Of a DNA stretch of 64,000 nucleotides, positions 5,291-40,194 are shown one piece after another. Position numbers and translations under genes: made by a program. This DNA comes from Heptranchias perlo. Taxonomy: Eukaryota. The notes under the pieces were generated by a model that had not been told where the DNA came from, ran no database searches, and was given only the letters and a program-made list of their open reading frames with translations. Position 1 is the first letter of the stretch; every line of letters begins with the position of its first letter. Location: contig NC_090330.1 of assembly GCF_035084215.1 (NCBI RefSeq), forward strand, positions 23,064,001 to 23,128,000. Direction: 5' to 3'.

Positions 5291-5626
5291 ATGGAAATGT
5301 CTACTGCTGAAACAGCTGTTGATTCATTCAGCGGGAACTCTGGAAATCAGACAATTGATGAACCCTACCCAACGTCCATCAACACAGCCATGGATTCATC
5401 ATCTACCAGCCACTTATCTAATGTCTTTGTGTATGTGTCAATTTTCCTGAGTTTGCTGGCTTTTTTGCTTTTGCTCCTGATAATTGCATTGCAGAGGCTT
5501 AAGAATGTCATTGCTTCCAGTTCTTCTTGTCCGGAAGGCACAAGTAACGCAGGGAGTTCTAGCACCAATTTGGAAGTGTGTAGCCTTTCGTCCAGATCAT
5601 CTGGTTTCTCAGCTCTCTCGAGCTAA
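5291..5626 (+). CDS. SERTM1: Serine-rich and transmembrane domain-containing protein 1 (single coding exon; start may be the second ATG at 5297)
   Basis: 111-aa ORF with HLSNVFVYVSIFLSLLAFLLLLLIIALQRLKN and NLEVCS..SS, matching recalled SERTM1. CCNA1 and SPART are known neighbours in human. Confidence 0.93.
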   Translation: MEMSTAETAVDSFSGNSGNQTIDEPYPTSINTAMDSSSTSHLSNVFVYVSIFLSLLAFLLLLLIIALQRLKNVIASSSSCPEGTSNAGSSSTNLEVCSLSSRSSGFSALSS

Positions 5627-8729: not shown

Positions 8730-10790
8730 TAAAGTGAAGGGCAAGGCTGGTAGAAGTAGGGAACCTTGGAGATTGAGGAGATTGGACTCGGGAGATTGAG
8801 GCCCTAGTCAAAAAGAAGAAGGAGGCATATGACATGCATAGACAGCTGGGATCAAGTGGATCCCTTGAAGAGTATAGAGATTGCCGGAGTAGAATTAAGA
8901 GAGAAATCAGGAGGGCAAAAAGGGGACATGAGATTGCTTTGGCAGATAAGGCAAAGGAGAATCCAAAGAGCTTCTACAAATACATAAAGGGCAAAAGAGT
9001 AACTAGGGAGAGAGTAGGGCCTCTTAAGGATCAACAAGGTCATCTATGTGCGGAACCACAAGAGATGGGTGAGATCCTGAATGAATATTTCACATCGGTA
9101 TTTACGGTTGAGAAAGGCATGGATGTTAGGGAACTTGGGGAAATAAATAGTGATGTCTTGAGAAGTGTACATATTACAGAGAGGGAGGTGCTGGAAGTCT
9201 TAACGTGCATCAAGGTAGATAAATCTCCGGGACCTGATGAAATGTATCCCAGGACGTTATGGGAGGTTAGGGAGGAAATTGCGGGTCCCCTAGCAGAGAT
9301 ATTTAAATCATCGACAGCTACAGGTGAGGTGCCTGTAGATTGGAGGGTAGCAAATGTTGTGCCTTTGTTTAAGAAGGGCGGCAGGGAAAAGCCTGGGAAC
9401 TACAGACCGGTGAGCCTGACATCTGTAGTGGGTAAGTTGTTAGAGGGTATTCTGAGAGACAGGATCTACAGGCATTTGGAGAGGCAGGGACTGATTAGGA
9501 ACAGTCAGCATGGTTTTGTGAGAGGAAAATCATGTCTCACGAATTTGATTGAGTTTTTTGAAGGGGTAACCAAGAAGATAGATGAGGGCTGTGCAGTAGA
9601 CGTGGTCTACATGGACTTTAGCAAAGCCTTTGACAAGGTACCGCATGGTAGGTTGTTATATAAGGTTGAATCTCATGGGATCCAAGGTGAGGTAGCCAAT
9701 TGGATACAAAATTGGATTGACGACAGAAGACAGAGGGTGGTTGTAGAGGGTTGTTTTTCAAACTGGAGGCCTGTGACCAGCAGTGTGCCTCAGGGATCGG
9801 TGCTGGGTCCGCTGTTATTTGTTATTTATATTAATGATTTGGATGAGAATTTAGGAGGCATGGTTAGTAAGTTTGCAGATGACACCAAGATTGGTGGCAT
9901 TGTGGACAGTGAAGAAGGTTATCTAGGATTGCAACGGGATCTTGATAAATTGGGCCAGTGGGCCGATGAATGGCAGATGGAGTTTAATTTAGATAAATGT
10001 GAGGTGATGCATTTTGGTAGATCGAATCGGGCCAGGACCTACTCCATTAATGGTAGGGCGTTGGGGAGAGTTATAGAACAAAGAGATCTAGGAGTACAGG
10101 TTCATAGCTCCTTGAAAGTGGAGTCACAGGTGGATAGGGTGGTGAAGAAGGCATTCGGCATGCTTGGTTTCATTGGTCAGAACATTGAATACAGGAGTTG
10201 GGATGTCTTGTTGAAGTTGTACAAGACATTAGTAAGGCCACACTTGGAATACTGTGTACAGTTCTGGTCACCCTATTATAGAAAGGATATTATTAAACTA
10301 GAAAGAGTGCAGAAAAGATTTACTAGGATGCTACTGGGACTTGATGGTTTGACTTATAGGGAGAGTTTGGATAGACTGAGACTTTTTTCCCTGCAGAGTA
10401 GGAGGTTAAGGGGTGACCTTATAGAAGTCTATAAAATAATGAGGGGCATAGATAAGGTAGATAGTCAAAATCTTTTCCCAAAGGTAGGGGAGTCTATAAC
10501 GAGGGGACATAGATTTAAGGTGAGAGGGGAGAGATACAAAAGGGTCCAGAGGGGCAATTTTTTCACTCATAGGGTGGTGAGTGTCTGGAACGAGCTGCCA
10601 GAGGCAGTAGTAGAGGCGGGTACAATTTTGTCTTTTAAAAAGCATTTGGACAGTTACATGGGTAAGATGAGTATAGAGGGAAATGGGCCAAGTGCAGGCA
10701 ATTGGGACTAGCTTAGTGGTATAAACTGGGCGACATGGACATGTTGGGCCGAAGGGCCTGTTTCCATGTTGTTAACTTCTATGATTCTAT
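8730..10790 (+). mobile_element. Young 5'-truncated CR1 with an uninterrupted 625-aa ORF2 part (RT plus C-terminus, no endonuclease)
   Basis: ORF 8834-10711: [41 protein letters not shown]; TCTATGATTCTAT tail. Confidence 0.95.
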
Positions 10791-13299: not shown

Positions 13300-14690
13300 A
13301 GAATAAAAGAATCATAGAAAATTTATGGCACAGAAGAAGACCATTCAGCCCATCGTGTCCGAGCCAGTTGAAAATGAGCCACCCAGCCTAATCCCACTTT
13401 CCAGCACTTGGTCCGTAGCCATGTAGGTTACTGCACTTCAGGTGTGCATCCAGGTACTTTTTAAATGAGTTGAGGGTTTCTGCCTCTCCCACCCTTTCAG
13501 GCAGTGAGTTCCCAGAACCCTACCACCCTCTGGGTGAAAAACTTTTTCCTCAGTTCCCCTCTAATCCTTCTACGAATCACTTTAAATCTATGCCCCCTGG
13601 TTATTGACCTCTCTGCTAAGGGAAATAGGTCCTTCCTATCCACTGTATCTAGGCCCCTCATAATTTTGTACACCTCAATTAAATCACCCCTCAACCTCTT
13701 CATTTCCAAGGAAAACAACCCCAGCCTATCCAATCTTTCCTTGTAATTAAAATTCTCCAGTCCTGGCAACATCCTCATAAATCTCCTGTGTATCCTCTCT
13801 AGTGCAAACACATCTTTCCTGTAATATGATGACCGGAGCTATACGCAGTACTCAAACTGTGGCCTAACTAATGTTATATACAGTTCCGACATAACCTCCC
13901 TGCTCTTATATTCTATGCCTCGGCTAATAAAGGAAAGTATTCCATTTGCCTTCTTAACCACCTTATCGACCAGTCCTGCTACTTTCAGGGATCTGTGGAC
14001 ATGCACTCCAAGTTCCCTCACTTCCTCTACGCCTCTCAGAATCCCCCCAGTCACACACCATCCCGACTTGGAAATATATCGCCGTTCCTTCATCGTCACT
14101 GGGTCAAAATCATGGAACTCCCTACCTAATAGCACTGTGGGAGAACCTTCACCACACGCACTGCAGCGGTTGAAGTAAATGGCTCACCACCACCTTCTCA
14201 AGGGCAATTAGGGATGGGTAATAAATGCTGGCCTTGCCAGCAACCCCCACATCCTATGAACAAATAATAAAAAAAATTATTGTGTATTCCCTTGCCTTAT
14301 TTGCCCTCCCCAAATGTATTACCTCACATTTCTATGGATTGAATTCCATTTACCACTTTTCTGCCCACCGGACCAGTCCATTGATATCTTATGACAGTCT
14401 ACAGCTTTCCTCCTCACTACCAACCACACGGCCAATTTTTGTATCATCTGCAAACTTTTCAATCATGCCCCCTACATTTAAATCCAAATCATTAATATAT
14501 ACCACAAAAAGCAAGGGACCCAGTACTGAGCCCTGCGGAACCCCACTGGAAACATCCTTCCAGTCACAAAAGCACCCATCGACCATTACCCTTTGCTTCC
14601 TGCCACTAAGGCAATTTTGGATCCAACTTGCCACTTTCCCTTGGATCCCATGGGCTTGTATTTTTTTGACCAGTCTGCCATGTGGGACCT
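13300..14690 (-). mobile_element. Second CR1 nested in the first, itself interrupted by a LINE-B 3' fragment
   Basis: Own 3' tail at about 13300-13320; ORFs 13497-13811, 13839-14135 and part of 14389-14844. Confidence 0.85.
14044..14276 (+). mobile_element. LINE-B 3' fragment with A-tail
   Basis: Matches about 18965-19192 (RRSFIV.GSKSWNSLP; AAGGGCAATTAGGGATGGG...A-tail). Confidence 0.88.
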
Positions 14691-15830
14691 TCTTGAAATG
14701 TGGTGCCCAGAATTGAACACAATACTCCAGCTGTGGCCTAACCAGTGTTTTATAAAGAATTAACATAACTTCCTTGCTTTTGTATTCTATGCCTCTATTA
14801 ATAAAGCCCAGGATCCCATATGCTTTTTTTAACAACCTTCTCAACTTGTCCTGCCATCTTCAAAGATTTGAGTATGTGCACCCCCAGGTCTCTCTGATCC
14901 TGCACCTCCTTTAAAATTGTACTATTTAGTTTACATCACCTCTCCTCCTTCTTCCTAGCAAAATGCATCACTACACACTTCTCTGCGTTAAATTTCATCT
15001 GCCATGTGACTGCCCATTTCACAACTCTGTCTATGTCCTCCTGAAGTCTGTTACTATCCTCCACATCGTTTGCTACATTTCCAAGTTTCATATAATCTGC
15101 AAACTTTGAAATTATACCCTCTATACCCAAAGTCCAGGTCAGTAATAGATATCAAAAAGAGCAGTGGTCCTAACACTGACCCCTAGGGAACACCACTGTA
15201 TACTTCCCTCCAGTCTGAAAAACAACCATTCATCACTAATCTCTGATTTCTGTCCCTTAGCCAATTTTGTATCCACGCTGCCATTGTTCCCTTAATCCCA
15301 CAGGCTTTAAATTTGCTAACAAATCTATTATGTGGTACTTTATCAAAAGCCTTTTGAAGGTCCATATACATAACATCAACCGCACTACCCTCATCAACCC
15401 ACTCCGTTACTTCATTAAAGAACTCAATCAGGTTAGACAAACACAATTTTCCTTTAACAAATCCGTGCTGACTTTCATTTATTAGCCCATACTTTTCCAA
15501 GTGCCAATTAATTTTGTCCCAGATTATTGTCTCTAAAAGTTTCCCCACCACCGACGACTGGCCTGTAATTGTCGGGTTTATCCCTCTTCCCTTTTTTGAA
15601 GAGGTGTAACATTTGCAATCGTCCAGTCCTCCAGCAATGTCCCCATATCTAAGGAGGATTGGAAGAATGTGGCCAGAGCCTCTGCAATTTCCCTCCGTAA
15701 CCTAGGATGCATCCCATCTGGATTGGGTGACCTTTCTACTTTGAGTACTGCCAATCTTTTAAGTACCTCTTCTTTATCTATTTTGATCGATCCAATATCG
15801 CCACTACATCCTCCTTTACTGCTACAATGA

Positions 15831-16012
15831 CTGTCCACAAAAAGCAGGACAAATCCAATCCGGCCAATTACCGCCCCATCAGTCTACTCTCAATCATCAG
15901 CAAAGTGATGGAAGGTGTCGTCGACAGTGCTATCAAGCGGCACTTACTCACCAATAACCTTCTCACCGATGCTCAGTTTGGGTTCCGCCAGGACCACTCG
16001 GCTCCAGACCTC
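15831..16012 (+). mobile_element. 182-bp LINE-B internal fragment, direct repeat of 17777-17958
   Basis: Manual alignment gives 6 substitutions in 182 bp; encodes VHKKQDKSNPANYRPISLL. Confidence 0.9.
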
Positions 16013-16234
16013 GAGGGGCTAAATGGCCTACTCCTGTTCTAATGTTCCTAGGGAAGGAAGATCACCTTTCCCCTTGAGGTATGATTTTCTTAAATGAGCA
16101 TTGCAGTAGAAATTCCACTCCTCAAACCTCTACGTGGAGCTTTAATGTCTTTCAGTGAGGAAGACTATACTTGCATTTAACATTCATCTTGAACATCCCC
16201 AGTTTGTGGGGATAATGAAAGCTCGCTTTTATGA

Positions 16235-16950
16235 ACCAAAAAAGTTTACAGTACAGAAGGAGGCCATTAGGCCCATCGTATTCACGCTGAACCCTTTGTT
16301 ACACCAATCCAAAACCAGTCCCAGTTCCTTGCTGTCTACTGACAGCCCAATATCTTCCTCGGCTTCAAATATTTATCTAATTTTTCCTAAAGAGACAATG
16401 GTCTGAGCCTCGGCCACTTCCTGTGGCAAAGCATTACATGCTTCAACAACACTCTGCATAAAGAAATTTATCCTAACCTCACTCTTGGTGTCTATTTAAA
16501 TTGATGACCTGTCATCACTTATGCCCCAACCAGAGGAAATAGTCTTTCCCAATTCACTCTTTCAAAATCCTTCATAATTTTCAAAACCTCTAGTAAATCT
16601 CTTCTTGCCCATCTCTGCTTCATTGGAAATGTTCCCAGTATAGTTTTCCATCCCTGGTATTCTGGTGAATATATGCTATATACATTCTATGGCTTTAATA
16701 GCCTTTCTATAGTGGGGCACCGAGAACTGCACAGTGTTACTAACTGTGGCCTGACCAATATTTTATACAAATTTATCGTTTATTTACTCTTGTTCATACT
16801 TATCCACATTAAATTGCATCTGCCATCTATCTACCATTCCGCTAACCTGTCAGTACCCTCCTGAAGTCTTTCACAGACCTCTCGCTGTTTGCCAAACCTC
16901 CTTTGTTACCAGCAAATTTTGAGAATATGCTCCTATGCCCAAATTCAAAT
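16235..16950 (-). mobile_element. Old decayed CR1 3' region
   Basis: Similarity to CR1 3' ends elsewhere (GGAGGCCATT.GGCCCATC; CCAGAGGAAATAGT). Confidence 0.65.
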
Positions 16951-17191
16951 CTTGTATCGTTTATTTATATGTTAATAGTGCAGCGAACGGCTTTGCTTTG
17001 TGTACATTATTTTCCCCTATTTCGGAAGGAACAAAACGATCTGTATATAATATATTAAAAAATCTTGCATACAGCAGCACTTCCTGTAAGCATCACAATT
17101 ACTTCTGTTACATGTTAGCGTATTCTCTGACTCAGTCATGAGCAATGCCATGGGAAATCTAGTTGTTTATAAAACTATTAAAATTTTTCAG

Positions 17192-17386
17192 GGGCCTCTT
17201 GGCTGAGCTGGGGTTTGGCTAAAGGAGCTGAATTCACTGGTAAAGCAATCCAGAAGGGAGCCTCTAAGCTAAGAGAGCATATTCAGCCTGAAGATAAGCC
17301 TGCAACAGTCAGTCCAACAGTGGAAAAGGGACTCAGTGTTGCAAGACAAGCAACGGGAGGTGCTGTAAAAGTCAGCCAGTTCTTGG
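17192..17386 (+). pseudogene. SPART: Isolated spartin exon (start of senescence domain), open frame and intact splice sites; probably a duplicated orphan fragment
   Basis: ttttcAG|gg-GCC...: (G)ASWLSWGLAKGAEFTGKAIQKGASKLREHIQPEDKPATVSPTVEKGLSVARQATGGAVKVSQFL-g|GTAAG, 195 nt, phase 1-1. No other SPART exon was recognised in the window. Confidence 0.85.
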
Positions 17387-17707
17387 GTAAGCGAACAAAC
17401 TATATCCTTGAATACACTTATTTCTGGAAGGACGTTAAGAAACTGAAAACCTGTTGCACGGTAGATGTTTCACTTGGAAGTTTTTTGATCACGTTAAAGG
17501 ATTCCTCCTCTTTGTACATGCTCTTTGTTGACTTGCATTGCCAGTTGCTAAGGTTTTACATCCTAGTAATTTTACTGAAATTAAGCAAATAATAAAAGGT
17601 GAACATCAAAAATTACACTTGCCTGTTTACAGAGTATACATACACTTTTTTCAAGACAGCAACTGTCTTGCTCATGTAACTTAAGTTTAGTTTTCTTGGT
17701 ACATTAC

Positions 17708-19192
17708 CCAAGCTGTTCCAGTACAGCTACAACACTGGCATCTACCCGACAATGTGGAAAATTGCCCAGGTATGTCCTGTCCACAAAAAGCAGGACAAAT
17801 CCAATCCGGCCAATTACCGCCCCATCAGTCTACTTTCAATCATCAGCAAAGTGATGGAAGGTGTCGTCGACAGTGCTATCAAGCGGCACTTACTCATCAA
17901 TAGCCTGCTCACCGATGCTCAGTTTGGGTTCTGCCAGGACCACTCAGCTCCAGACCTCATTACAGCCTTGGTCCAAACATGGACAAAAGAGCTGAATTCC
18001 AGAGGTGAGGGGAGAGTGACTGCCCTTAACATCAAGGCAGCATTTGACCGAGTGTGACACCAAGGAGCTCTAGTAAAATTGAAGTCAGTGGGAATCAGGG
18101 GGTATACTCTGCAGTGGCTGGAGTCATAACTAGCACAAAGGAAGATGGTAGTGGTTGTTGGAGGCCAATCATCTCAGCCCCAGGACATTGCTGCAGGAGT
18201 TCCTCAGGGCAGTGTCCTAGGCCCAACCATCTTCAGCTGCTTCATCAATAACCTTCCCTCCATCATAAGGTCAGAAATGGAGATGTTTGCTGATGATTGC
18301 ACAGTGTTCAGTTCCATTCGCAACCCCTCAAATAATTAAGCAGTCCGAGCCCGCATGCAGCAAGACCTGGACAACATCCAGGCTTAAGCTGATAAGTGGC
18401 AAGTAACATTCGCGCCAGATAAGTGCCAGGCAATGACCATCTCCAACAAGAGAGAGTCTAACCACCTCCCCTTGACATTCAACGGCATTACCATCGCCGA
18501 ATCCCCCACCATCAACATCCTGGGGGTCACCATTGACCAGAAACTTAACTGGACCAGCCATATAAATACTGTGGCTACGAGAGCAGGTCAGAGGCTGGGT
18601 ATTCTGCGGCGAGTGACTCACCTCCTGACTCCCCAAAGCCTTTCCACCATCTACAAGGCACAAGTCAGGAGTGTGATGGAATACTCTCCACTTGCCTGGA
18701 TGAGTGCAGCTCCAACAACACTCAAGAAGCTCGACACCATCCAAGATAAAGCAGCCCGCTTGATTAGCACCCCATCCACCACCCTAAACATTCACTCCCT
18801 TCACCATCGGCGCACTGTGGCTGCAGTGTGCACCATCCACAGGATGCACTGCAGCAACTCGCCAAGGCTTCTTCGACAGCACCTCCCAAACCCGCGACCA
18901 CTACCACCTAGAAGGACAAGAGTGGCAGGCACATGGGAACAACACCACCTGCACGTTCCCCTCCAAGTCACACACCATCCTGACTTGGAAATATATCGCC
19001 GTTCCTTCATTGTCGCTGGGTCAAAATCCTGGAACTCCCTTCCTAACAGCACTGTGGGAGAACCGTCACCACACGGACTGCAGCGGTTCAAGAAGGCGGC
19101 TCACCACCACCTTCTCAAGGGCAATTAGGGATGGGCAATAAATGCTGGCCTCGCCAGCGACGCCCACATCCCGTGAACGAATAAAAAAAAAA
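17708..19192 (+). mobile_element. LINE-B 3' half (RT plus C-terminus, A-tail), with stops
   Basis: [48 protein letters not shown]; ends GAACGAATAAAAAAAAAA. Confidence 0.92.
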
Positions 19193-21924
19193 TCCTCTCC
19201 TCTATTGAAGATGGATGCGAAGTATTCATTTAGTACCTCAGCCATGCCCTCTGCCCCAACAAGAGGATTTATTTTTTTGTCCCTAATCAGTTCCACCCTT
19301 CCTTTGACTACCCTTTTACTATTTATATGCTTATAAGAGACTTTTGGGTTCCCTTTCATGTTAGCCGCTAATCGATTCTTGTACTCTATCTTTGCCCCTC
19401 TCATTCCCTTTTTTAGATCTCCTCTGTACTTTCTGTATTCAGCCTGGTTCTCTAATGTATTATGAACCTTACGTTTGTTATAAGCCTCCTTTTTCTGTTT
19501 CATTTTAATCTCTATTTGTTTAGTCATACAGAGAGCTCCAGCTTTGGATGTCCTTCCTTTCCTCCTCGTAGGGATGTGGCTATTCTTTACCTGAACCAAC
19601 TCCTCCTTGAAGGCCTCCCATTGTTCAATTACTGTTTTGCCTGTTTTACCAACTTTTGATTCCAATCCACCTGGGCAAGATTCCTTTTTAATTCACTGAA
19701 ATTAACCCTCCTCCAGTTAAACATTTTCACATTTGATTGTTCCTTGTCCTTTACCATAACTATTCTAAACCTAATGATAATATGATCACTGTTCCCCACA
19801 TGCTCTACCTGCCCCACTGCATTCCTCAGAAATAGATCCAGCACTATTTCCTTCCTGGTAGGGCTGGAAACACACTGTTCCAGAAAGTTCTTCTGAACAT
19901 ATTTCAGGAATTCCTCCCCCTCTTTGCCCTTTGCACTGTTACTATCCCAGTCTATTGGGATTATCACAACTCTATAGTTCTTGCATCTTTCTGTAATTTG
20001 CCTGCAAATGTTCTCCTCTTTCTCCTTTCCATTTTTTGGTGGCCTATAGTATACACCCAGTAGTATAATAGCTCCTCTAGTTTTCCTTAATTCTAACCAA
20101 ATAGATTCTGTCTTTGACCCCTCAACCACATCATCCCTTTCCAGTGCTATAATAGTTTCTTTGATCAATGCTGTCCCCCCCCCCGCCCTTTCTTTCTTTC
20201 CCCATCTTTCGTGAATATCTTGTAGCCAGGAATATTAAGTACCCAATCTTCCCCTTCTTTGAGCCAGGTCTCTTATTGCCACTATATCATAGTTCCTTGT
20301 GGCAACTTGAGCCTGCAACTCACCAACCTTATTTACCACGCTATATGCATTTACGCACATGCACTCCAACCTCATCTTAGACTGTTACGTATTTGCCCCG
20401 TCTGATCCCTTTTATTTCTGAACTATTCTTTACTCTAGTGCTACTTGTCACTCCCAATCTTCTGTGCACCTTGTTTCTTCTCTCTAACGTTTCATCCTGG
20501 TGCCCACCCCCCTGCCAAATTAGTTTAAACCCTCCCCCACAGCACTAGGTAACCTCCCCGCGAGGACATTAGTCCCAGCTCTGTTGAAGTGCAACCCGCC
20601 CATCTTGAACAGATCCCTCCTGCCCCAGAACTGATCCTAATGCCCAAGGAATCTGAAGCCCTCCTTCCTGCACCATTTCTCCAGCCACGCATTAAACTGC
20701 CTTATCCTACTATTCCTATACTCGCTAGTAGGTGGCACTGGGAGTAAACCAGTAATTACTACCTTTGAGATCCTGCTTTGTAAACTTCCTCTCTAGCTCC
20801 TGAAACACTGATGGCAGGACCTCGACCCTTTTCCTTTCTATGTCATTGGTTCCCACATGGACCACGACTTCTGGCTGTTCCCCTACCCCCCTCAAAACGT
20901 TCTGCACCCTCTCAGTGATGTCCTTTACCCTGCCACTGGGGAGACAACACAACATGTGGGACTCATGTTGGCAGTTGCAGAAATACCTGTCTGTCCCCCT
21001 GACTATTGAATCCCCTATAACAACTGCATTTCTTTTTCCACCCTGTGCAGCCGGGTCGCCCACAGTGCTGTGGATTTGCTCCTGGCTGCACTCTCCCGAG
21101 GTGTCAACACTGAATACCAGTTTGTGAGTGCCACACTCCTAGGGGACTTCTGCACTGCCTGCCTGTTCCTCCTACTCTGTCTGGTGGTCACCCACTCCCT
21201 CTCTGCTTGAACTCTCAGTTGCTGCGGGGTGATCACCTCCTGAAACATGCTAGCCACAAAACTCTCAGCTTCCTGTATGCACTGTAGTGACGCCAGCCGC
21301 CCCTCAAGCTCAGAAACTCTGAGCTTGAATTCAAGCAGTTGGCAGCACTTCCTGCACATGTGGTTTTCCAAGACACACAAAGTGTTCTGAAGTTCCCACA
21401 TGGCACAGGATGTGCATGCAACGGGCCCCACCTGTTCTGCCATGTTAGCTAACAATTATTTAAACTGTTTGTTTAGCTTTAAGGCACTTTACTATTTATC
21501 TGACACTAAAGCACTAACCCAATAAAAAACACTAACCAATGAACTAAATACTTACTGATTTACCCTCGGCGCTCCTCCTTATCTTGTTTTGATTGCTCGT
21601 GCGGCCCCTGTTTTGCTCTGCTGAGTCTTAGTCTATAGGTCTTTGGTTTAAATCACTTAGCACCTCCTTCCCCCTCTGCACCTATTTTCCACACTCACCA
21701 AATTCCCAGTTGAATGTCCTCATTTGTTTAGCACTTCACTCCGTTAGAGGTTCACTCTCTGTCTTTCCCAACCTCTGTGCTCAAGCACAAGCAAATATTG
21801 GCCAATACAAGGATTTTAGGGAACATGAGATCCACTTATGGCAATAATTGGTAATATTGAATCTGAAAAACTATCTAGCACAAAGCCTCAAAAATCTTTA
21901 CAACAGTGTAGACAGGCTTTTTGA

Positions 21925-23632: not shown

Positions 23633-24822
23633 CGAACCGTTGCAGTCCTTGTGGTGAAGGTGCTCTCATGATGATAAAAGGAAATTCCAGGAAATTGATC
23701 TATTGATGATGAGGGATCTGTGATGTATGTCCAAGTTAGAATAGTTTGACTTCCCTTTCTTGGAGTGAAACTTGGAGTGATGATGTTTCTAAGACATTGT
23801 TGCTCGTCCTTCTCGTTGGTTGAGGTTACAGAGGAGGGAGATGCTATCAAGGTAGTCTTGGTGAGTTGCTGCAGTGCATCCAGTAGATTGATAATACTGC
23901 AGCTACAGTGTGTTGTTAATGGATCGGTTCATTATTGAGCCTAGTGACGGGGAGGCTAATCAAGTAAACTGCCATGTTCTGGATGGTGTCAAGTTTCCTG
24001 AGTGTTATTGCAACTGCAGTTGTCTGCAAGCAGTGAATATTCCACCACACTCTTGACTTGAGCCTTATAGATGGTGGATTGGATTTGAGAAGTCAGGAAT
24101 TAAACCATTTGTTGTAGAGTATCCAGCCTCTGCCATGTTCTTGTAATGGTTGGCCCAGTTCAGCTACTGGTCAGCGGTGACCCCCAAAATATTGATGGTG
24201 AGCAACTTGGCAATGGTGGTGCTGTTGAAAATCAGGGGGGGTTGGCTGGGTTTTCTCTTGCTTGATAGTCATTACATGGCACTTGTGTGGTGTGAATGTT
24301 ACCTGCCACTTGCTAGTCCAAACCTGAATGTCATCCAGGTGCTGCTGTAGACAGGCATGGGCTGCTTCATTATCAGGGAAGTTATGAATAGAGCTGAACA
24401 CTAGAATCATCAGCAAACAGCTCTACTCCTGACCTCATGATGAAGAAAAAGTTACTGATGAAGCAGCTGAAGATAGTTGGGCCAAGGACGCTTCTCTGAG
24501 GAACTCTTGCAATTATGTTCTGTGCTGCAATTACTAGCCTCCAACAAGCATGGCCATCTTCCTTTGCGTGAGATATTAATCCAGTCAATGGTAGGTTTTC
24601 CCTGTGACCCTCATCGACTTCAGTTTTGATAAGGCTCCTTAGTGCCATATCAGTTGATTGTTGCCTTGATGATGAGGGCAACTACACTCACCTCTCCTCT
24701 GGCATTGAACTCTTGTGTCCATATCTGGATCAAGGCTATGATGAGATCTGAAGCCAAGTGGCTCTGGCAGAACCTAAACTGAGTGTCAGTGAGCAGTTAT
24801 TGATGACAAGGAGTTGCTTGAT
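23633..24822 (-). mobile_element. Old LINE-B copy (RT region)
   Basis: VPQRSVLGPTIFSCFI..FADD and KWQVTFTPHKC in ORFs 24382-24681 and 24171-24416. Confidence 0.82.
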
Positions 24823-30688: not shown

Positions 30689-33600
30689 CTGGGGAAAAAG
30701 CAGATTTAAAGAGTTGTTTTTAAACACACTAAATTTAATTGAATTAAAAAGAAAAAAGCAAACTTACTTTGAGCTCTTGTATTTTTCCCTAATTGCTTGT
30801 TGCGGCTGGAATTTGGCTTGGAGAAAGGTCTTGTGCAAGTCATTCAGACAAGGTACAATGTCAATCAATGAGTAACCAGTGAATGCAGCAAGAGATTCAG
30901 GCTGTCAAAAGCAGACAAGAGTTACTACCTTAAGGTTAGTTTCTGAAATTTGGTCTATAATTTAAAGTTTCATGACTACACAATTAGAAATTATATCCAC
31001 CTAGAAACCTTCAGTTAATTATAGATTATGCTTAGCAAAGTAATTTATTCTTTGGCTGAACTGGCTAGCAATGTTATTTAAAGCAATAAAAAAGGGAAAA
31101 CTAGCCAGCAGTCTTCAGAGCTAGAAACAAGTCAGTAGCAACTGGACGGGCTATGACAAGGCATACACCCTTAAAATCAGAAAGATAAAATTAGCATTGA
31201 GTGCTGGAAAAATGTTACAAGCTTCAGGAACAGCAAGTCAGTTTTGCTGCTGGGCATTTCAGATCTTAGTGGTGCACTCCAATTTAGAAGGTGTTCATGG
31301 CAATGGGGAGGGTATGTTAGTTTCCAAGGACATGGATTGATATTTGGGGCAGAGCATTTTGTCAGCACAGCACTAGGCAGGGATCTGAAGCAAGGGCTTT
31401 TTTCCTTTGATTTTTAACTTTAGTCTTCCTCCCCTGCTTTTCTTAATTCATGAGTGGACTTATCACTATTTGCATATTTTGTCCTTTATACCTCTGCATC
31501 ACCTTGCCAGATTATCTTTTACATCAGCCTATTAGGCAGTTGTTAATCCTTTAGCTTAACCCCCTTTATGACTGGTGTTAATGCTCCAATATTGTATTGG
31601 GTTCAGCTCTGAAGGTACACCCAAAATGTCATCTATAGATGCTCACTGACATGTATTTCCAGCATTTAATTTTTAATGCATGTGCATGTAGGGGCACAAA
31701 AAGCTTACCCAAAACATTTTGTTGATTGTATAGTTTGCCAAGCAATATGCAGCTGCTGCCATCAGAGAGGGTGTGTACTTCAGACATACATCAGCTTCTA
31801 GTAAACTCAGTTCAGCTATGTACTGTGGATTACAGAAAGATTGTTAGCTAATTGGTACAAGTGAACTTTGAAAGCAGGTTTCAAATGGCTGTCAGCAGTA
31901 AGCTCGTGGCTTGGTGCAACACTGTTTAGAATTAACTGGAAATGGCACTTGTCATTACAGTAACATTTCTTCCTTTTGCTCTTGCAGCAATTTATTTTAC
32001 TTTTCCATCCTAATCTTTTAGTCTGCCTACATCTGAACTAAATAGAAACTTGCAGCCAAGTGTTGGCAAAACTAAAGCCAACTTGTTCTGCTCACAAATA
32101 TTTCAGTCTCTAGTTCTATCAAGCTCTCCGATCTAGCCTAAGGGAATAGCCAGAGTGTACAATTTAGTCAGTCGCCCAACATCTCGTAAGAAAATTGCTC
32201 ACTCCCATGAATCTTGCCCATTTACCCTCATGGCCTTAATCCATTTTCAACTTAAAATTGATAGCCAATGCTTTCTTCAGCTTTCCCCACTTGTAACCCT
32301 CAAGGGCAACTATTGCTGGCCTTGCTAGCAACACCATATCCCAAGAATAAATAAAATTAATCTTCACAAAACTGCAGCCAAGCAGCCTTTAACTTTTCAC
32401 TTCCACCTTGCATCAATCCCAGTAAATCTGCACCCAGCTATGAGGGTTATTCACTAGATTTTTAGCCTTTTGTTTGACTAGTGACATCTCCTAGATGGTC
32501 CAATTCCAATTGCAATATTAAAGTCAAACTCAGTGCTCAATTGGGCTTCTGCAATTACTGGCACTTGCCAATAACAATGTCAGGTTAATGGATGAAGTAT
32601 TTGGGATCCCAAACCATAGAAAGGTTACAGCATGGAAGGAGGCCATTGAGTCCATGCCAGCTCTATGCAAGAGCAATCCAGCAAGTCCCACTCCCACCCT
32701 GCAAATTTCTTCAAGTACTTATCCAGTTCCCTTTTGAAAGCCATGATTGAATCTGCCTCCAGCACCCCCTTGGGCAGTGCATTCTAGATCCTAACCACTC
32801 ACCAAAAAAGTTTTTCCTCATATCACCTTTGGCAAAAGAACCAATCACCTTAAATCTATGTCCTCTGGTTCTTAACCCTTCATGATTTTGAATACCTCTA
32901 TCAAATCTCCTTGGAACAGAGATGGTTGCAAGGAGAACAACCCCAGCTTCTCCAGTCTATCCAAGTAACTAAAGTCCCTCATCCTTGGAATCATTAATAA
33001 ATCTCTTCTGCACCCTTTAAGGCCTTCACACCTTTCCTGATGTGAAGTGCCCAGAATTGGACAATACACTAGTTGTGGCCAAACCAGTGTTTTATAAAGG
33101 TTCAATACTTTTGGACTCTCTGCCTCTATTTATAAAGCTCAGGATCCCATATGCTTTAATCACTTTCTCAACCTGCCCTGTGACCTTGAACAATGTGTGC
33201 ACATAAACACCCAGATCTGTTCCTGTATCCCTTTTAGAGTTGTGCCCTCCAAGTTTATTTTGTCTGTCCTACCAAAATGTATCACTTTGCATTTTTGTAT
33301 TAATTTCATCTTGTTGTGTCTTCCTATGCTACCAGCCTGTCTATCACCTTGAAGTCTATCACTATCCTACTCAGTTTATTACCCTCCCAAGTTTTGTGTC
33401 ATCTGCAAATTTCAAAATTGTGCCCTGTACTCAGTCATTAATAAGAAAAGCACGGATCCCTGAGGACCACCACTGTACACCTCCCTCCAGTCTGAAAAAC
33501 AACTGTTCACCACTGTTGCGCCTTAGCCAATTCTGTATCCATGTTGCTACTGCCCCTTTATTCCATAGGCTGCAATCTTGATAAGCCTACCATGCAGCAT

Positions 33601-36600
33601 TTTGTCAAGTGCCTTTTGAAAGTCCATATACACCATTTCAATCGTCTTACCTCAAAAACTCAGGTTACTGAAACATGATTTACCTTTAACAAATCCATGC
33701 ATACTTTCCCTAATCAATCCACACTCGTCCAAGTGACTTAATTGTGTCCTGGATTATTGTTTTTAAAAGTTTCTCCACCAGAGGTTAAACTGACTGGCCT
33801 ATAGTTGCTGGGTTTATCCTTACACCTTTTTTGAATAAGGGTGTAACATTTGCAATTCTCTAGACCATCCCCATATATGTTTGGAAGATTATGGCCAGTA
33901 CTTCTGCAATTTCCACCCTTACTTCCCTCAGCAATCTAGGATGCATCTCATCTGGACCAGGTAACTTATCTACTTTAAGTACAGCTAGCCTTTCAAGTAC
34001 CTATCAATTTTTAAACTCATCCAGTAGCTCAACATGTCTTCCTTTACTGACACTGGCAGCATCTTCCTTGGTAAAGACAGATGCAAAGTATTCATTTAGA
34101 ACCTCAGCCATGCCTCTGCTGCCATGAGTAGATCTCCTTGCTGGTCCCTAATCAGCCCCACCCCTCCTTTTACTATCTTTTTACATGCCTGTAGAAAACT
34201 TTTGGATTCCTTATGTTGGCTGCCAGTCTATTCTCACTCTTTGACCCTCATTTCCTTTCACTTCCCCTCAACTTGCTATATTCTGCCTGGGTCTCATGTT
34301 ATTGAACCTGACATCTCATATGCCCTTTCCACCCCCCATTTCATCTTACTATCTGTCATCCAGGGAGCTCTGGCTTTAGTTGCCCTACTTTTGACTCATG
34401 GGAATGCGCCTAGATTGTATCTGAACCATCTCCATGATTTTCAATACATGGAGCAGGTGTCAGTTTCCATCAGGTCTTATATATTGAAGGCATGGGCATT
34501 GCTGACATTTGTCACCAATCCCTAGATGCCCCAAGAAAGTGGTGGGCCTTTTTAATACAGCTAAATGGCTTGTTAGGCCACTTAAAGGGCAAGAGTCAAC
34601 CACCTTTATGTGGTACTGGAGTCATAGGCTAGACCAGGTAAAGGCATGCTCCCTTCCCAAGAGAAAAAAGGTTTAACCCTTGCCAAGAGCTTTATTTCAA
34701 AAATGAATTGGTAAACCCTCCATGATGCCTATGGGCATTAGGACCTATTTCCAGTATATTTACTTGGTCCACCCTCACTTTAGTAGCACAGATATACACA
34801 TTGGTGGATTTGAGGAGCCCATGGTTAACTTGCTATGGTTTGTTATTGCTATCAGGCAAGATCTTAGCTGGTCAGGACAGCTGAATGATCTTCTGAGAGT
34901 TCTACTCAATCTCACTTTCCTCTCCCAAAGGAGGTGGTGAATACAGAAGGTCACTACTTCAGTGGAGACGAAGTGCCAGCATATTCACTTGGTGTTTGGC
35001 TATTTAGCCTACACTTTTTTCCCCCCACAAGTGTAGACATTCCTTGTGGATCTAATGCTAGACTTCACTGGTAGATGTGGCATACTCCAATGCTTAGCAT
35101 TGTGCCAATACCAGCCTTTCTAGCTGCCTAGAGCTGGGTTTGGATTCTCCAGTGTATGATCAGCCAACACAATCAATTTCAGTTTCTGCACTAATGTACT
35201 GGAGTGCTCACACCCACTATAAAATAATGAGTGGTCTCAAGATTACTAAAGTTACTGTCTAGGTGGCAATGTGAACACACTAAGTATACAGTAATAGGGC
35301 AGCACTTATTATCCAATAGCCCCTTTCTCAACTGTAACCCATCCATGGAATAGTGTTCCTGGTTATCCCAAATATTGAAAGTCATTAGAAATCACTTGCC
35401 AAATGAAGTTATTGAAATGAAGCTCAAGGAGCAGCTTAGCAGTTCAAAATACATGGAGTCCTGGAAACCAAGTGATGATTTTAAGGGATATGAACTTGCA
35501 GCAAGTGATAGGTATCAATGTTTATTTATCCTCCAACCAAGATAGTTATAGATTATGTTAGCCAGTGCAGAAGAACTCCCTTGATGCTCTTCAAATAATG
35601 CTGTGGGATCTTGTGTCCACCAGAGGTGCAGACATGGTCTTTATTAACATCTCATCCTAAAGATAGTGCTTCAGTGTAGCACACCTCTGCCTAGATTATG
35701 CATTCAAGTATCTGGAGTGGGGCATGAACCCATGACTTTCTAGCTCTAGGCAATGAGATATGACCACTGTCCTCAAAGAGATGAGTTGAGGTCTCTATCC
35801 AGAGTTGTCACAGGACTTCAGACAACCAATGGCCTACCCCCTTTCAAGGGGGTTGAATAGCTGTGTTGTCACTGGCCTAGACTGGGACCTATGTTTACCT
35901 GCAGCTCAAAATACCATATCACATGATTTAATTAAACCAGAGGGCTATTCAAAATAGTAACAAATTCCATTGATGGCCCAAGGTGCTAGTCAATGAATTT
36001 TAACCATTGCAGCTACCAGACCCTTGGGATTTATGTTGCTTATAGCTTCAGTACCTTGATTAAATAAGCAATTATATTAGCTGCAGGCTTCACAGATATT
36101 TTGGGTGACCCTTGCATGCTGATCCTCAGTACAGAGATTAATAATCTAAAAAAAAAAGTCCATTTTGCCAGTGAGTCCCATAGTTGTTGAGGATCTGGCT
36201 GCCCAAACTAGGATCCTGCAGTAGGCAAACAGTCAAATGACTGACTTAATGAGCAGAGATATGAAACTCAGTCAAGCAATCAGGACCTTGCAGAGCCAAT
36301 GCCAGGAAACAAGCTGATGTGGACAGGTAGCGATTTAAAAAAAAAATCCAGTTACATTCACTCCTTTGAGGCATCATTTAGCTCTGATTTTGCTTTGGGC
36401 ATTAAAGTGTGCATTGCTGATGCTGTCTTAGTTTCATCTATGGGATCCACGAGACTGCCGTGAACACTTACTGCCAAGTAATTAATCAGCCCAGACTTTT
36501 GTTCCTTATGTTGGTTTGCTTATAATTCAAAAGCCCCAAAAGCTAGCAGTTATTCCCGCTTAAATTTGGCATCAGATCAGATTTGATAAGCAGTTACAAT

Positions 36601-39600
36601 TCATTTAGACTAACTCTTGAGATTTGCCATCAATATGTGTGCCAATTTGACAGCTGTCCCTCCACCTGGTGTTTCTCCTGAAATCTTCCACCTTCCTTCA
36701 CGTTGAGTTTCAGTAACAGGCTAAATAAGAATTCTATCTTTGATCCTTTCTACACCAACCCACACACCACATTCAGCAAGTTTAACTTGGGCTTGCAAGT
36801 GATATTTAGCACCTCCGCTGGCATGTGGGTAGCAAAGGAAAAAGGGGACGTTTCATCTTTTTGGATTTCATGTTTGACTGCTCCCTTACAAGAGCAGTTA
36901 CATTTACTGGCCCAGTGTTTAACTGGGGATATCTAGGTTAAAAACTATCCGTGGAATGGAGAACTCACTTCCCCTGTTGGCTTTCATGATTCTCCAATCT
37001 CAAGGCAGTAGAACACATACTTGTTGAATGGGCTTAATGGCTAATTTGTTGGTTTATTAGCAATTTAATACAAGACCCTTAATTACCACTGCTATCCTAA
37101 ACTAGCACATCAGTAATCCTAGGCAAGAGCTTATTTCCTTCAGCATTTATGAGTATCTGTCTGATCTCAGACAAGGATAAACTCTTCCAGCAAAGCTGCC
37201 AAATATTTGAAATAAGCCTTTATGAAGATTGAATGTTTTGGATTCTCCCTCAGACACCTATCTAACCACTGATTAACAGTTGAAGCAAAGCAAGCTGGCA
37301 CATTGGAGTCTGGTTTTAACCCCTCTTAAAATGCCTGTAAAAAAAGTTCAAATCCTTCCTGCCACTACTTTGTTTAAGTCTTCATTCCAATCTACACCAT
37401 CCATTTGATGGAATTACAGCTGGTCTCTTGCACCACCAGAGGCGAATCTTTCAATTCTACTAAGGAGTTATCTAAAAAAAATTTCATCTTACTACCTTTC
37501 ACCTTTAAAAGCTTTCCTACTACATCTTTAGGATCTCGACATTCCTTCACTTCATGCCAAACTAAATCATGTGCGAGTCCAGTTAGTCAGTGGGCTGAAA
37601 TTGAATTTACCCACAAATTAGATATACATACCATAGCTAGGGTTCCCATTTGGCCACTAGTTTCTTCCTTCAAAAACTGCGTTAGGAACTGATTGACTGT
37701 TGGTACAGTCATGTCAAAGCTCAAAACCTTGAGTAGGAGGTGCTCCATGCGCAAGAGTTGCTTTTTTGTATACGTGTCATCTGTTATGTAGACAAACTCA
37801 TCCATTTCTGGTGGATATATTTCCTCATATTTCCTAGGGGGAGAGAGGAGAAGTTATAAAAAGTTCTAAGTATATATGCAACTGTTCATTTCAAACTGAT
37901 GTTCTTGGAATTTATTTCCATTTAGAGACTACAAATTTCAAATAACAACCCTCGAGTCACAAATCGATATTTTTTTGTTAGAGACATACTTCACTGCAGT
38001 AGTTCGCGATTTTAAGTAATAACTTACGATGCCACAAGCATGGCAGCTGTCCCTACAAGTTGCAGCTTTCCTCGAAGGACCGACATGCATGACAGGAATC
38101 TGTCCAAGTAGTTTATTGCCAAGTACAAAGTTTCAGTTTGCAGACTGTACTCCTCACTAACTTCTACAAGCCAGTCCACAAGGATGGAGCGCATACTGGG
38201 TGTTATGTCTGGCTGCTTCTTCATGTACCCAAACATTGGCCTACATTTTTCCTGAAAAAAAAAGTTTAGAAAAAAAATTTAAACATTGCATCCACTTCAT
38301 TCGGACCTTCAAATATTGGCACCAGAGAACAGGAACCCGTTCTCATTTTTGCCACTCCGGCAGTGCCTAAAATTCTTGCGATTGACTCATTTATTAGTCT
38401 AATTCTCGTGTTTCTCCCCCCACCCAGGGGCGGGAAAGAAAAAGAACGTAGAAACAGAAACTAGAACTCTAGTCGTCTCAATAAAAGCATGGTTTTGCAA
38501 AGTTAGGCAAATGTTTAATGCTTTAAGAACATTACCTCAAATCCTTCAATTAATTCTACGATTTGGATAGGACCTAATGCGGACTGTACAGTTGCAATTT
38601 GTATTAAGATTGGTCTATTTCAGGTCTGCTTCATTTCGATACATCTTCAGGTCAGGCAAAACGTCAATGTCACAAGCTCGCTGCAAAATGCGCTTCAGAC
38701 TGCATTGCCCTCTGATCAACTCATCTATGTTCAAGCTGGCCGGTACTCTGCTGGTTGCCGGTAAGACTATCAATTCTACTGCAAAAGTAGACTTTAAATG
38801 TAGCTTTTGCAGCAGGACGATACACAGCAGTTTTAGGCAGCCTAATGGAGGGAAGTACCAAAAAGACAGTGCCATAATAAAACCCGAAGTATCACTACCA
38901 GGACAATCAATTTTGTTAAATTGTTGAATGTCGCTTCGTAACCTAAAACTGGTTCCTTTGGGATTAAAGCGGCACACTTAATTTAGAGTACTACCCCAGT
39001 GCGGCAAACTCACTTCTGCCTCCCTAAGGTATCGATAAATGTCCTCTGCATATTCTTCCACAGCGAGATAATCTACGTGCTCATCCAAATCGTCATGGGA
39101 ACGCTGCGAGCGAATTGTTGAATCTACCAGCATAGGCGAAACTGCGGAATTAAAAAAAACTCAACAGGTACTTGAAACAGGCGAACAAAAAGCCTCGTGA
39201 ACGTATAAACTGAAATGCAGTCAAAAACAATTTAGTGTGAACGAATGATTTAAAGTTTTAAACCCAATCGTGTTAGCAGCGAAAATAAAAGCTAACTTCT
39301 AATGGTAACGCGTTCATCCCCAGTTAGAAAATAGCTTCAGAGCCATTAGCGTTGAGCGATACCAAAATTCCAGTTCATATCTTGCAGTTACCTTCACTAA
39401 GGTCCAAGAACAAGCAATAGTCGTCCGCTTGTTTGGAGATACTACCAACTTCTCCAAGTTTAGTCTCCAGTTCGGAGGTCAGGTTACATTCGGAGACTTC
39501 GACCTCATCCTGGACTTCATCCTCCATGTAAATACTGAAGTTTGGGTTGGACACAAAAGTAGCCGGACATTCAAAGAAAGTAGTGCTGCTCTTAGCCGAA

Positions 39601-39985: not shown

Positions 39986-40194
39986 GGTTGCTAATGTTAG
40001 TTTAACACAAAGCAAAACAGCTTTAAAAAATATATATATACAGGCTTAACTAATCCTTGACTTGCTTAAAACAATTCCTTCCAAATAAAGTTAAGAGTAA
40101 GCGCCTTAGTAAAGCCAGATATATATGGGAGTGGGTTTAATTGTTTTCCGAGCGCAGAGCAGCTCGCTCCGGTTCCATCGTGTAGCAAATTACT

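Follow-up and report, generated by a model that had tools for sequence, protein, structure and literature searches.

A SPART exon with its intron flanks in a LINE-bounded block that splits a CR1 element of Heptranchias perlo

How does a single coding exon of SPART, with intron DNA on either side, come to lie inside a CR1 element? We addressed this for a 64-kb stretch of the Heptranchias perlo genome (the window, 64,000 nt), in which a minus-strand CR1 is split by a 3.36-kb block (15831–19192). Our preferred reading, to which we give a probability of about 0.6, is that the block is a young copy that would have arisen when a break in a resident LINE was repaired off a related LINE copy within SPART intron DNA elsewhere on this chromosome.

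Anatomy of the block and its host CR1

The host CR1 has the 3′ part of its ORF2 in the left flank (14690–15830, minus strand), as placed by tblastn and by aligning its DNA with the window’s CR1 paralogues, and the 5′ part in the right flank (19193–20234, minus strand), which resumes about 5 nt after the left flank. When the rejoined flanks were read against a CR1 paralogue at 33800–34300 by DNA alignment within the window, about 5 nt (4 to 5) of CR1 were found to be gone, and a tblastn probe with CR1 ORF2 placed aa 4–110 at 19524–19204 and aa 130–200 at 15790–15590. The continuity of the CR1 across the block, proposed in a first-pass annotation of this DNA, is borne out by both results. No target-site duplication adjoining the block was found when the flanks were compared. 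A 6-mer common to both flanks was rejected as a candidate, as it sits 23 nt inside the left flank.

Alignments also confirmed the order of parts given in that annotation. The block opens with 182 nt of LINE reverse transcriptase (RT) region (15831–16012, plus strand), which has an open frame and is likely the 5′ end of a resident young copy; this LINE is likewise interrupted, at 16012. There follow a CR1 3′ tail (16013 to approximately 16050, plus strand) matching CR1 tails at 47013, 60796, and 1187, upstream SPART intron (16051–17191, plus strand, single copy within the window), the SPART exon (17192–17386, plus strand), downstream SPART intron (17387–17707, plus strand), and a LINE 3′ half. 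The earlier term “intron-like DNA” fits the intron that accompanies the exon, but the stretch also contains an old minus-strand CR1 remnant, placed by tblastn at about 16318–16732. As had been noted, the 182-nt stretch is repeated at 17777–17958, and alignment gave 97% identity with 6 differences.

The exon is 195 nt long, in phase 1-1, and encodes part of the senescence domain of spartin a (approximately aa 407–471 of protein P0001). Its translation is identical to that protein at 64 of 64 aa (E 6.7e-32) and matches the Pfam Senescence family (E 3e-16), and the exon is preceded by AG and succeeded by GT. These protein and Pfam matches uphold its description as an intact exon with both splice sites. 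Searches with five spartin proteins found no other SPART-like stretch in the window for any of the five, with remaining matches at E 0.36 or worse, and DNA and protein comparison found no second copy of the block’s unique part within the 64 kb. We consider the lone exon and its intron flanks likely to be a recent extra copy.

Copy number and likely donor of the exon

Contigs from 4 of the 24 listed runs were compared with the window. Runs X1 and X4 are DNA of organism A and X5 is RNA from the same sample, which is possibly the window’s own source; X19 comes from another organism. In X1, block contigs had depths of 20–23.7 (n = 4) against a median of 9.84 for 11 values from other loci (2.25x), and in X4, the block stood at 84.5 against 54 (1.56x); with LINE pieces included, the ratios were 1.8x and 1.45x, respectively. 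These ratios are not copy numbers; the baseline consists of 11–15 short repeat contigs, and two values lie near 18–20 (18.4, which was counted, and 19.9 at 16620, which was derived and left out). All four LINE pieces listed for X1 had a depth of at least 27. Because the depth is 1.45–2.25 times that of other loci, two copies of the block’s unique part are likely, and we take a second copy probably to exist on the strength of these read depths. Among the findings that would overturn its reading, the first-pass annotation had named a sole genomic copy of the exon spliced to SPART exons outside the window; the window indeed holds no other, but the depth suggests two.

Contigs cross 16050|16051 and 17707|17708 unbranched in both DNA runs of organism A, and contigs at block depth in X1 and X4 continue from 16021 past the end of the CR1 tail with no break. 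Because contigs run unbranched into both, the donor likely carries the LINE start as well as the CR1 tail, the latter probably within its intron. The right LINE begins at 17708, 322 nt past the last base of the exon, and loose contig ends at 17708 are listed in three of the four runs. A donor LINE about 320 nt after the exon had been predicted, and the unbranched contigs and the 322-nt distance, which is likely common to the putative donor, agree with this.

Between contigs and window, only two letters differ in approximately 1,714 nt of unique block, at 16226 and 16620 in the upstream intron, and at both places both DNA runs carry the letter other than the window’s. The downstream intron showed 0 differences from X1 record 4 and X4 record 22, and the exon showed 0 differences from a 3,506-nt contig of X5. 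With so few differences over some 1,700 letters, the capture event appears young. Spartin a and the window’s SERTM1 are both annotated on a record of 112,544,244 nt, a gene-level match by record length only, and the SPART donor gene is likely to lie on the window’s chromosome.

These equal record lengths, together with the exact match of the exon to annotated spartin a and to the contig of the RNA run, would also be seen if this were the sole copy of the exon. A plus-strand SPART gene would then span the window and hold SERTM1 and the cyclin gene within introns, and the block would be the outcome of LINE insertions stacked in an intron. We consider this highly improbable. Besides the depth, the adjacent SPART exons would have to be >17 kb away on the upstream side and >46 kb away on the downstream side, and the exon and its old intron DNA sit within a CR1 whose flanks read through the block as one element, which is impossible for a native conserved exon.

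Junctions 15830|15831, 16012|16013, and 19192|19193 are unbridged among the 32 contig pieces listed (with 386,152 more), and no joint from 15830 to 19193 appears among the 15 of 2,771 joints listed. An assembly artifact, in which the block is present only at the true SPART gene and was wrongly joined here, would be consistent with these three junctions, with the non-window letters at both variant places, and with the uncertain depth baseline. It would, however, take two wrong joins, the one lacking homology and the other linking LINEs that differ by about 2%, which together leave the CR1 whole except for 5 nt, and the X1 depth near twice that of other loci and the 6 differences between the 182-nt copies also speak against it; we judge it quite unlikely. 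In X19, the unique part had no coverage beyond repeats, with 17338–17671 uncovered, and no listed joint crosses the block; such a hole proves nothing. Shares of 0.32–0.33 in the runs of organisms B–G were rejected as signs of orthologous loci, since the LINE part alone would presumably give them.

An apparently mosaic LINE and the proposed origin of the block

The LINE 3′ half appears to be of two ages. From 17708 to 18387 (plus strand), the RT region is decayed, with four in-frame stops and 15 private events in 680 nt (2.2%), and is likely the donor’s intronic copy. From 18388 to 19192 (plus strand), there is an open 246-aa frame, with 4 private events in 793 nt (0.5%, counted to 19180), and a poly(A) tail at 19184–19192 on the same strand as the exon; this part is likely the resident copy. 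The left 182 nt have one private letter listed, at 15961. The CpG observed/expected ratio is 0.16 in 17959–18387 versus 0.53 in 18388–19192, and stop codons occur in 4 of 226 codons of the decayed part versus 0 of 306 (p 0.03). The events are clustered (KS p 0.016 with 19 events, or 0.036 when limited to the 14 read directly from the variant table), and a change-point permutation gave p 0.028. Because 40 of 247 variant rows were counted, these event counts are lower bounds, with at least one likely private change missing (codon 18028), and for five letters in the right-hand 182-nt copy the derived state was inferred. On this reading of the sequence, the right LINE looks like a mosaic, decayed to about 18130–18390 and young thereafter, like the left 182 nt, and the resident-to-donor switch likely falls somewhere in 18130–18765.

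Letters were also polarized at the protein level, where 10 of 64 scored codons differ in 17959–18387 versus 3 of 56 in 18388–19125, and, in the 182-nt copies, 3 of 54 (right) and 2 of 53 (left). Because the homologues mix subfamilies and many columns hold three sequences only, this comparison is weak and we do not count it as support. The protein search for LINE relatives returned 11 proteins only, the long ones at most 48% identical. Exact LINE patterns matched 0 stretches in metagenome contigs and viral contigs, which thus offered no independent LINE copies for polarizing letters. The starts of the two LINE copies, at 17708 and 17777, are just 69 nt from each other, and the repair model does not explain this coincidence.

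Because the right LINE looks mosaic, we favor repair of a break in the resident LINE from the copy in the SPART intron. First, a young LINE with a poly(A) tail would have entered the CR1, 5′-truncated at 15831 and with about 5 nt of target lost, and would later have broken downstream of its first 182 nt. The right end may then have paired with an older same-strand LINE 322 nt after the SPART exon, the change between resident and donor letters falling within about 18130–18765. Synthesis would have continued beyond the LINE, across the exon and the intron DNA on both its sides, as far as the CR1 tail, over approximately 2.1–2.75 kb. With homology exhausted there, the newly made strand would have been attached to the left LINE end at a microhomology of about 3 nt, and the 182-nt repeat would remain. 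The first-pass annotation had proposed this sequence of LINE break, invasion of a SPART-intron LINE, and end-joining, and the depth, the likely common LINE start, the same-length record, and the apparent mosaic agree with it. Its copied tract of about 1.9 kb is probably too short, as copying likely runs past 17958 to at least about 18130–18390, i.e., at least 2.1–2.4 kb; the switch of letters that it placed near or after 17958 likely does lie after that point by private-letter decay, within about 18130–18765, from counts that are lower bounds. A template switch during replication, running the opposite way, would yield an identical product and is indistinguishable.

The closing joint has a likely 3-nt microhomology between LINE and CR1 3′ UTR (16010–16012, plus strand), as nine CR1-tail contigs of X5 align back to 16010. 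All three other CR1 tails in the window have only 1 nt in common at these positions, and the length of the microhomology depends on the donor’s CR1 subfamily. Three nucleotides would be met by chance about 5% of the time. The block was likely closed at about 3 nt of microhomology.

Two other DNA-based routes lead to a similar product. In the first, an unequal crossover between the resident LINE and that of the SPART intron would have duplicated the entire interval, cyclin gene and 5′ portion of SPART included, and a deletion reaching from the resident LINE to the CR1 tail would then have taken away nearly all of it. Product and mosaic would be identical, and LINE–LINE rearrangements, homologous or not, are common in human genomes (PMC9675761). 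We nevertheless hold this two-step route improbable, since the deletion would have to start by chance within 182 nt of the resident’s 5′ end, and no remnant of a larger duplication was seen in the region compared. Integration of a 1,946-nt SPART DNA circle (the equivalent of 16013–17958) into the resident LINE by a single crossover would account for a direct repeat exactly flanking the unique part. It predicts a uniform LINE after 17958, however, and the decay is high to about 18130–18390, then low, which makes the circle very unlikely.

RNA-based routes were weighed against the same mosaic. Simple 5′ transduction, the alternative offered in the first-pass annotation, would bring the whole LINE 3′ half from the donor and fits poorly; the poly(A) tail and same-strand flank that it implies are there, but a LINE 3′ part and flank of one source are spoken against, with moderate strength, by the uneven decay over 17708–19180 and by the 182 nt of younger LINE 5′ of that flank. 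A single retrotransposition without a prior resident LINE, in which reverse transcription of an active LINE RNA starts at the CR1 target, passes by homology to the SPART intronic LINE (as unspliced RNA, or as neighboring DNA that the cDNA invades), takes in exon and introns, and returns by microhomology to the LINE RNA for 182 nt, accounts for the mosaic as well as the repair model does. The co-oriented exon and LINE, the poly(A) end, the small target loss, and a return point (17958) just upstream of the leaving point suit it, and pairing of L1 cDNA with DNA close by, two-transcript chimeras, and L1 intermediates that recombine through homology are described in published work. It would require two switches within a single event, and its RNA template gives no cause for a SPART donor on the same chromosome; reported L1 templated insertions are mostly <250 bp long and no farther than 15 bp from the site. 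The young LINE also has 5 private events in 975 nt, against 2 differing letters over the ~1,714 nt of the block’s unique part, and the resident LINE thus looks older than the capture; P is 0.006 with 2 as the real count, but 0.08 with 4 and 0.48 with 8 if differences are hidden. We regard a single retrotransposition as unlikely, and somewhat more doubtful still that a Zenon-like LINE took >2 kb, including the SPART exon and both splice sites, by such leave-and-return on RNA. If it did, the copy would have an intact LINE 3′ tail, be re-copyable, and possibly still segregate in the species, and would represent a capture route for CR1-group LINEs.

Known systems, neighboring genes, and use of the copied exon

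Under the repair reading, the block is a long example of an already known class, repair-mediated duplications (Pace et al. 2009, PMC2671141); it shows neither a novel mechanism nor a novel gene. These duplications have microhomology and lost target bases as signatures, and that study gives two intron/full exon/intron donors, no sign of selection on copied exons, a proximal class of ≤619 bp within 5 kb, and a distant class of up to 3,424 bp. Like them, the block interrupts a transposable element, shown here by the rejoining of CR1 with about 5 nt lost, would have its source at one other place on the same chromosome (from the depth of 1.45–2.25x and the record length), shows a small deletion and may have microhomology at its ends (likely 3 nt, but 1 nt against the window’s tails), and lacks a target-site duplication, its poly(A) being one that would belong to the resident LINE. 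Unlike the proximal class, its tract is at least 2.1 kb and no donor lies within the 64-kb window, and, unlike these duplications generally, one end was likely primed by long LINE–LINE homology.

That feature recalls duplication-dependent strand annealing (DDSA; Fiston-Lavier et al. 2007, via PMC3276153 and PMC3420103), in which a break in a repeat is repaired from an ectopic repeat copy and the copied neighboring DNA ends in repeat, with an intrachromosomal mean of 3.1 kb in flies. The same LINE stands on both sides of the block and, given two copies, at the end of the donor tract, and the chimeric repeat of DDSA may have a counterpart in the mosaic decay (p 0.02–0.04, from 40 of 247 variant rows); DDSA, unlike the block, is known from Drosophila. 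Long-tract gene conversion that terminates non-canonically at microhomology (Hartlerode et al. 2016, PMC5104497) similarly copies several kilobases beyond homology and then connects with the second end through microhomology or inserted bases, in a reporter assay with a sister-chromatid donor, whereas the block would be a natural germline product copied from an ectopic LINE. Microhomology and lost target bases are given as signatures of such endings too. Single-copy Pack-TIRs (Tan et al. 2021, PMC8277862) also capture gene fragments post-insertion with a same-chromosome bias and a median microhomology of 2 bp; these are DNA transposons with microhomology junctions, whereas the block has a LINE, a duplicated 182 nt, and one homologous junction. 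L1 templated insertions and chimeras (10.1101/2024.08.27.596794, PMC11702581, PMC13526784) share the LINE–host fusion ending in poly(A), but are mostly short, local, and formed during integration, whereas the block’s LINE looks older than the capture. A search for shark spartin duplication, covering titles and the starts of abstracts, found no account of this locus among the papers listed.

The block’s LINE has a poly(A) tail, as do elasmobranch Zenon elements (PMC13343379), its RT is just 29% identical to that of the window’s CR1, and the LINE occurs in runs of several organisms. We call it Zenon-like as a lead, from the poly(A) and RT divergence of copies that were all 5′-truncated. CR1-group elements make up 22–34% of shark and ray genomes according to PMC13343379, and a genome-wide search for a LINE piece, unique DNA, and an overlapping piece of the same LINE is therefore feasible. 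Such a search could measure the rate of exon duplication by this route in a slowly evolving vertebrate lineage. If the repair model is true, the block is a natural, well-preserved record of LINE–LINE homologous recombination ended by microhomology, with a tract long enough for a whole coding exon.

Finally, we considered the neighboring genes. The SERTM1 coding region (5297–5623, plus strand; PF15872, E 2e-38; exact NCBI/UniRef protein) lies upstream, and the exon is co-oriented downstream of it as stated in the first-pass annotation. A cyclin A gene, CCNA1-like, lies on the minus strand (approximately 30790–40000; Cyclin_N, E 3.8e-25, with further coding pieces), which from motifs and synteny we take to be CCNA1. 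The suggestion that the exon is raw material for exon shuffling finds no support: the SERTM1 frame is a single uninterrupted ORF whose stop lies 11.6 kb upstream of the exon, AATAAA follows at 8235 and 8308, and the best 120 of 735 matches to the exon translation (113–2000 aa) included no chimeric protein. The RNA contig cannot separate the copies because the exon equals the donor’s; we consider the copied exon likely neutral and unused. A lone identical exon copy of this kind can misguide read mapping and gene annotation.

A SPART exon inside a split CR1 element

We aligned the two CR1 flanks on the minus strand (14690-15830 and 19193-20234), each alone, to a CR1 paralogue. The flanks rejoin with a loss of about 5 nt, in agreement with a CR1 ORF2 probe; the continuity proposed in the first-pass annotation was therefore borne out, and 15831-19192 is an insertion in CR1. 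No target-site duplication was found adjacent to the block. Its 182-nt LINE repeat (15831-16012 against 17777-17958) was seen again with the 6 differences first noted, and within the block a LINE is interrupted by 16013-17776 and has its 17777-17958 stretch in two copies. The SPART exon described at first pass is also present (17192-17386, plus strand; 195 nt, AG before, GT after, phase 1-1). Its product is part of the senescence domain, with Heptranchias perlo spartin a as best protein match (64/64 aa identical); the named ones among the next 15 matches are all from sharks or rays. With each of five spartin proteins as query, this exon was the sole SPART-like stretch of the 64-kb window.

SERTM1 (5297-5623) is on the plus strand and a cyclin A gene (about 40000-30790) on the minus strand, so their 3' ends converge on the block from either side. 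In human, SPART adjoins CCNA1, and SERTM1 presumably lies on the same strand as the cyclin A gene; the convergent arrangement here would then imply that one of the lineages has undergone a local inversion.

A probable second copy and its likely structure

Contigs of four public runs were aligned to 15000-20000 at 90% likeness; two DNA runs (X1, X4) and an RNA run (X5) are from one sample, and X19 is from another organism. Four X1 contigs over the unique part had depths of 20-23.7, against a median of 9.84 for other-locus contigs (11 values, with sums over two contigs divided evenly), a ratio of 2.25; one more X1 contig of about 19.9 (derived at 16620) was left out of the count. The X4 ratio was 1.56. 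These ratios drop to 1.8 (X1) and 1.45 (X4) once LINE pieces join the baseline, and contig depth is not copy number. Collectively, these depths argue with moderate strength for two copies in each haploid genome, or three per diploid, and it is very improbable that this exon is the only one in the genome. One X4 record (22) has 25 unaligned letters at 17203-17207, ending at a CTNAG site, as expected of a proximity-ligation library, which may explain the uneven X4 depth.

Since spartin a and the window's SERTM1 protein both sit on a 112,544,244-nt record, the donor gene is likely on the same chromosome as the block. In both DNA runs, contigs ran unbroken from 16021 across the CR1 tail end, and from the intron to 17733-17734, over the LINE start at 17708. 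Because a structural difference would break contigs if two copies were merged, the donor likely shares both repeats: a CR1 tail would precede its intron and a LINE would begin 322 nt past the exon, each in sense orientation, the LINE offset being close to the 320 nt or so that had been predicted.

Listed contigs cover 16021-17734 (16478-16557 by an X5 contig alone), and two positions in them, 16226 and 16620, differ from the window, so the event is young. Both DNA runs carry the identical pair of non-window letters, an agreement with probability 0.52 if the window letter is the minority and 0.06 at an even split. Such agreement is a hint that the insertion may be heterozygous, or that one haplotype has new variants; the low X4 depth ratio, down to 1.45-1.56, would likewise fit heterozygosity. 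An X5 contig ends at 16619, adjoining the second variant place.

A probable mosaic LINE and the likely origin of the block

We scored private letters, meaning window letters from which nearly all other family copies differ. Among 40 of 247 rows listed, there was at least 1 in the left 182 nt, with at least 10 private events in 17959-18387 and at least 4 in 18388-19180; at least one further likely private change (18028) is absent from those rows. The remaining five repeat differences were assigned as derived in the right copy, which we infer from the left copy not being listed as differing. Combined, at least 15 events in 680 nt are followed by at least 4 in 793 nt, a clustering with KS p 0.016 (0.036 on the 14 listed rows alone) and change-point permutation p 0.028. 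All 4 in-frame stops fall in 18055-18387, with the left piece and 18388-19125 open (p 0.03). CpG o/e values, with no family baseline to set them against, are 0.69 for the left piece, 0.16 for 17959-18387, and 0.53 downstream of that stretch. We gave no weight to a protein-level check, whose signal was too weak. The LINE is thus likely a mosaic: a single young copy would account for the left piece and the 3' end, and an older copy, brought in with the intron, for 17708 to about 18130-18390.

The reading we favor, at roughly 60%, is that a resident LINE suffered a break, whereupon its broken end would have invaded a homologous LINE in the SPART intron, synthesis would have left the repeat and copied through the SPART exon, and the new strand would have been joined by microhomology. 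It explains the mosaic and the 182-nt repeat, as well as the donor junctions being shared, the location on one chromosome, and a LINE that looks older than the capture. The young LINE parts carry at least 5 private events in 975 nt, against 2 differences in about 1,714 nt of capture (P 0.006, rising to 0.08 if the true capture differences are 4 and to 0.48 if 8). Left unexplained are the near-coincident starts of the two LINE copies, 69 nt apart. One retrotransposition event in which the template switched twice accounts for the mosaic as well, and descriptions of L1 templated and chimeric insertions back it (10.1101/2024.08.27.596794, PMC11702581, PMC13526784), though we judge it unlikely. Duplication followed by deletion is more doubtful still as a source of the block, and integration of a circle very much so.

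At the closing junction, LINE RT sequence is joined to CR1 3' UTR. Nine X5 CR1-tail contigs align back to 16010, giving 3 shared letters there, a match expected by chance in about 5%; the other window CR1 tails share 1 letter only (3/3). The chief weakness of the favored reading is that none of the contigs listed, beyond which there are 386,152 more pieces, bridges 15830/15831, 16012/16013, or 19192/19193; these junctions fall in repeats of high copy number, and contigs break there. An assembly artefact is improbable: the block is in the sequence and probably in the genome.

The block is young, and a repair-mediated duplication, with LINE-LINE homology as its primer, is the reading that suits it best. 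Events of this kind are known: Pace et al. 2009 (PMC2671141) found more than 1,000 such insertions interrupting human transposons, and for 2 of them the donor was intron/exon/intron; the SPART block exceeds their proximal class both in length and in distance from the donor. In DDSA, a break within a repeat is repaired with an ectopic copy as template (PMC3276153, PMC3420103), long-tract conversion ended by microhomology was shown in cells (PMC5104497), and Pack-TIRs are a DNA-transposon parallel (PMC8277862); PMC9675761, PMC13343379, and PMC3747384 were also taken into account. A narrow literature search returned no relevant publication on this locus.

Whether the exon copy is used, and other elements

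Nothing shows that the exon copy is used. The SERTM1 coding frame is one ORF with its stop 11.6 kb upstream of the block exon, and AATAAA occurs downstream of SERTM1 at 8235 and 8308. No chimeric protein was found in the best 120 of 735 matches (proteins of at least 113 aa). The only listed X5 contig over the exon (3,506 nt, 0 differences) matches 17188-17386 alone and looks as SPART mRNA would; both exon copies fit it equally. Youth alone would be expected to leave the exon unmutated.

Elsewhere in the window, two same-strand CR1 pieces at 14389-14859 (minus) are fused near 14690, one frame jumping back within ORF2, and so form a further CR1-CR1 chimera, some 1.1 kb to the left of the block. 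A young CR1 copy, 3 kb past SERTM1 at 8777-10711 (plus), has ORF2 open over 644 codons. The 107-codon open frame at 51181-51501 (plus) had no Pfam family and no usable Atlas match and is probably not a gene. At 23634-24822 (minus) lies a member of another LINE family, distant from that of the block but of the same kind, 71% identical to 17878-19089. Pieces of the block LINE's ORF, at 60-91% identity, also occur in many annotated shark gene models (P0128-P0133, P0137, P0142, P0145, P0155, P0157, P0160, P0167), as either exonised repeats or annotation noise.
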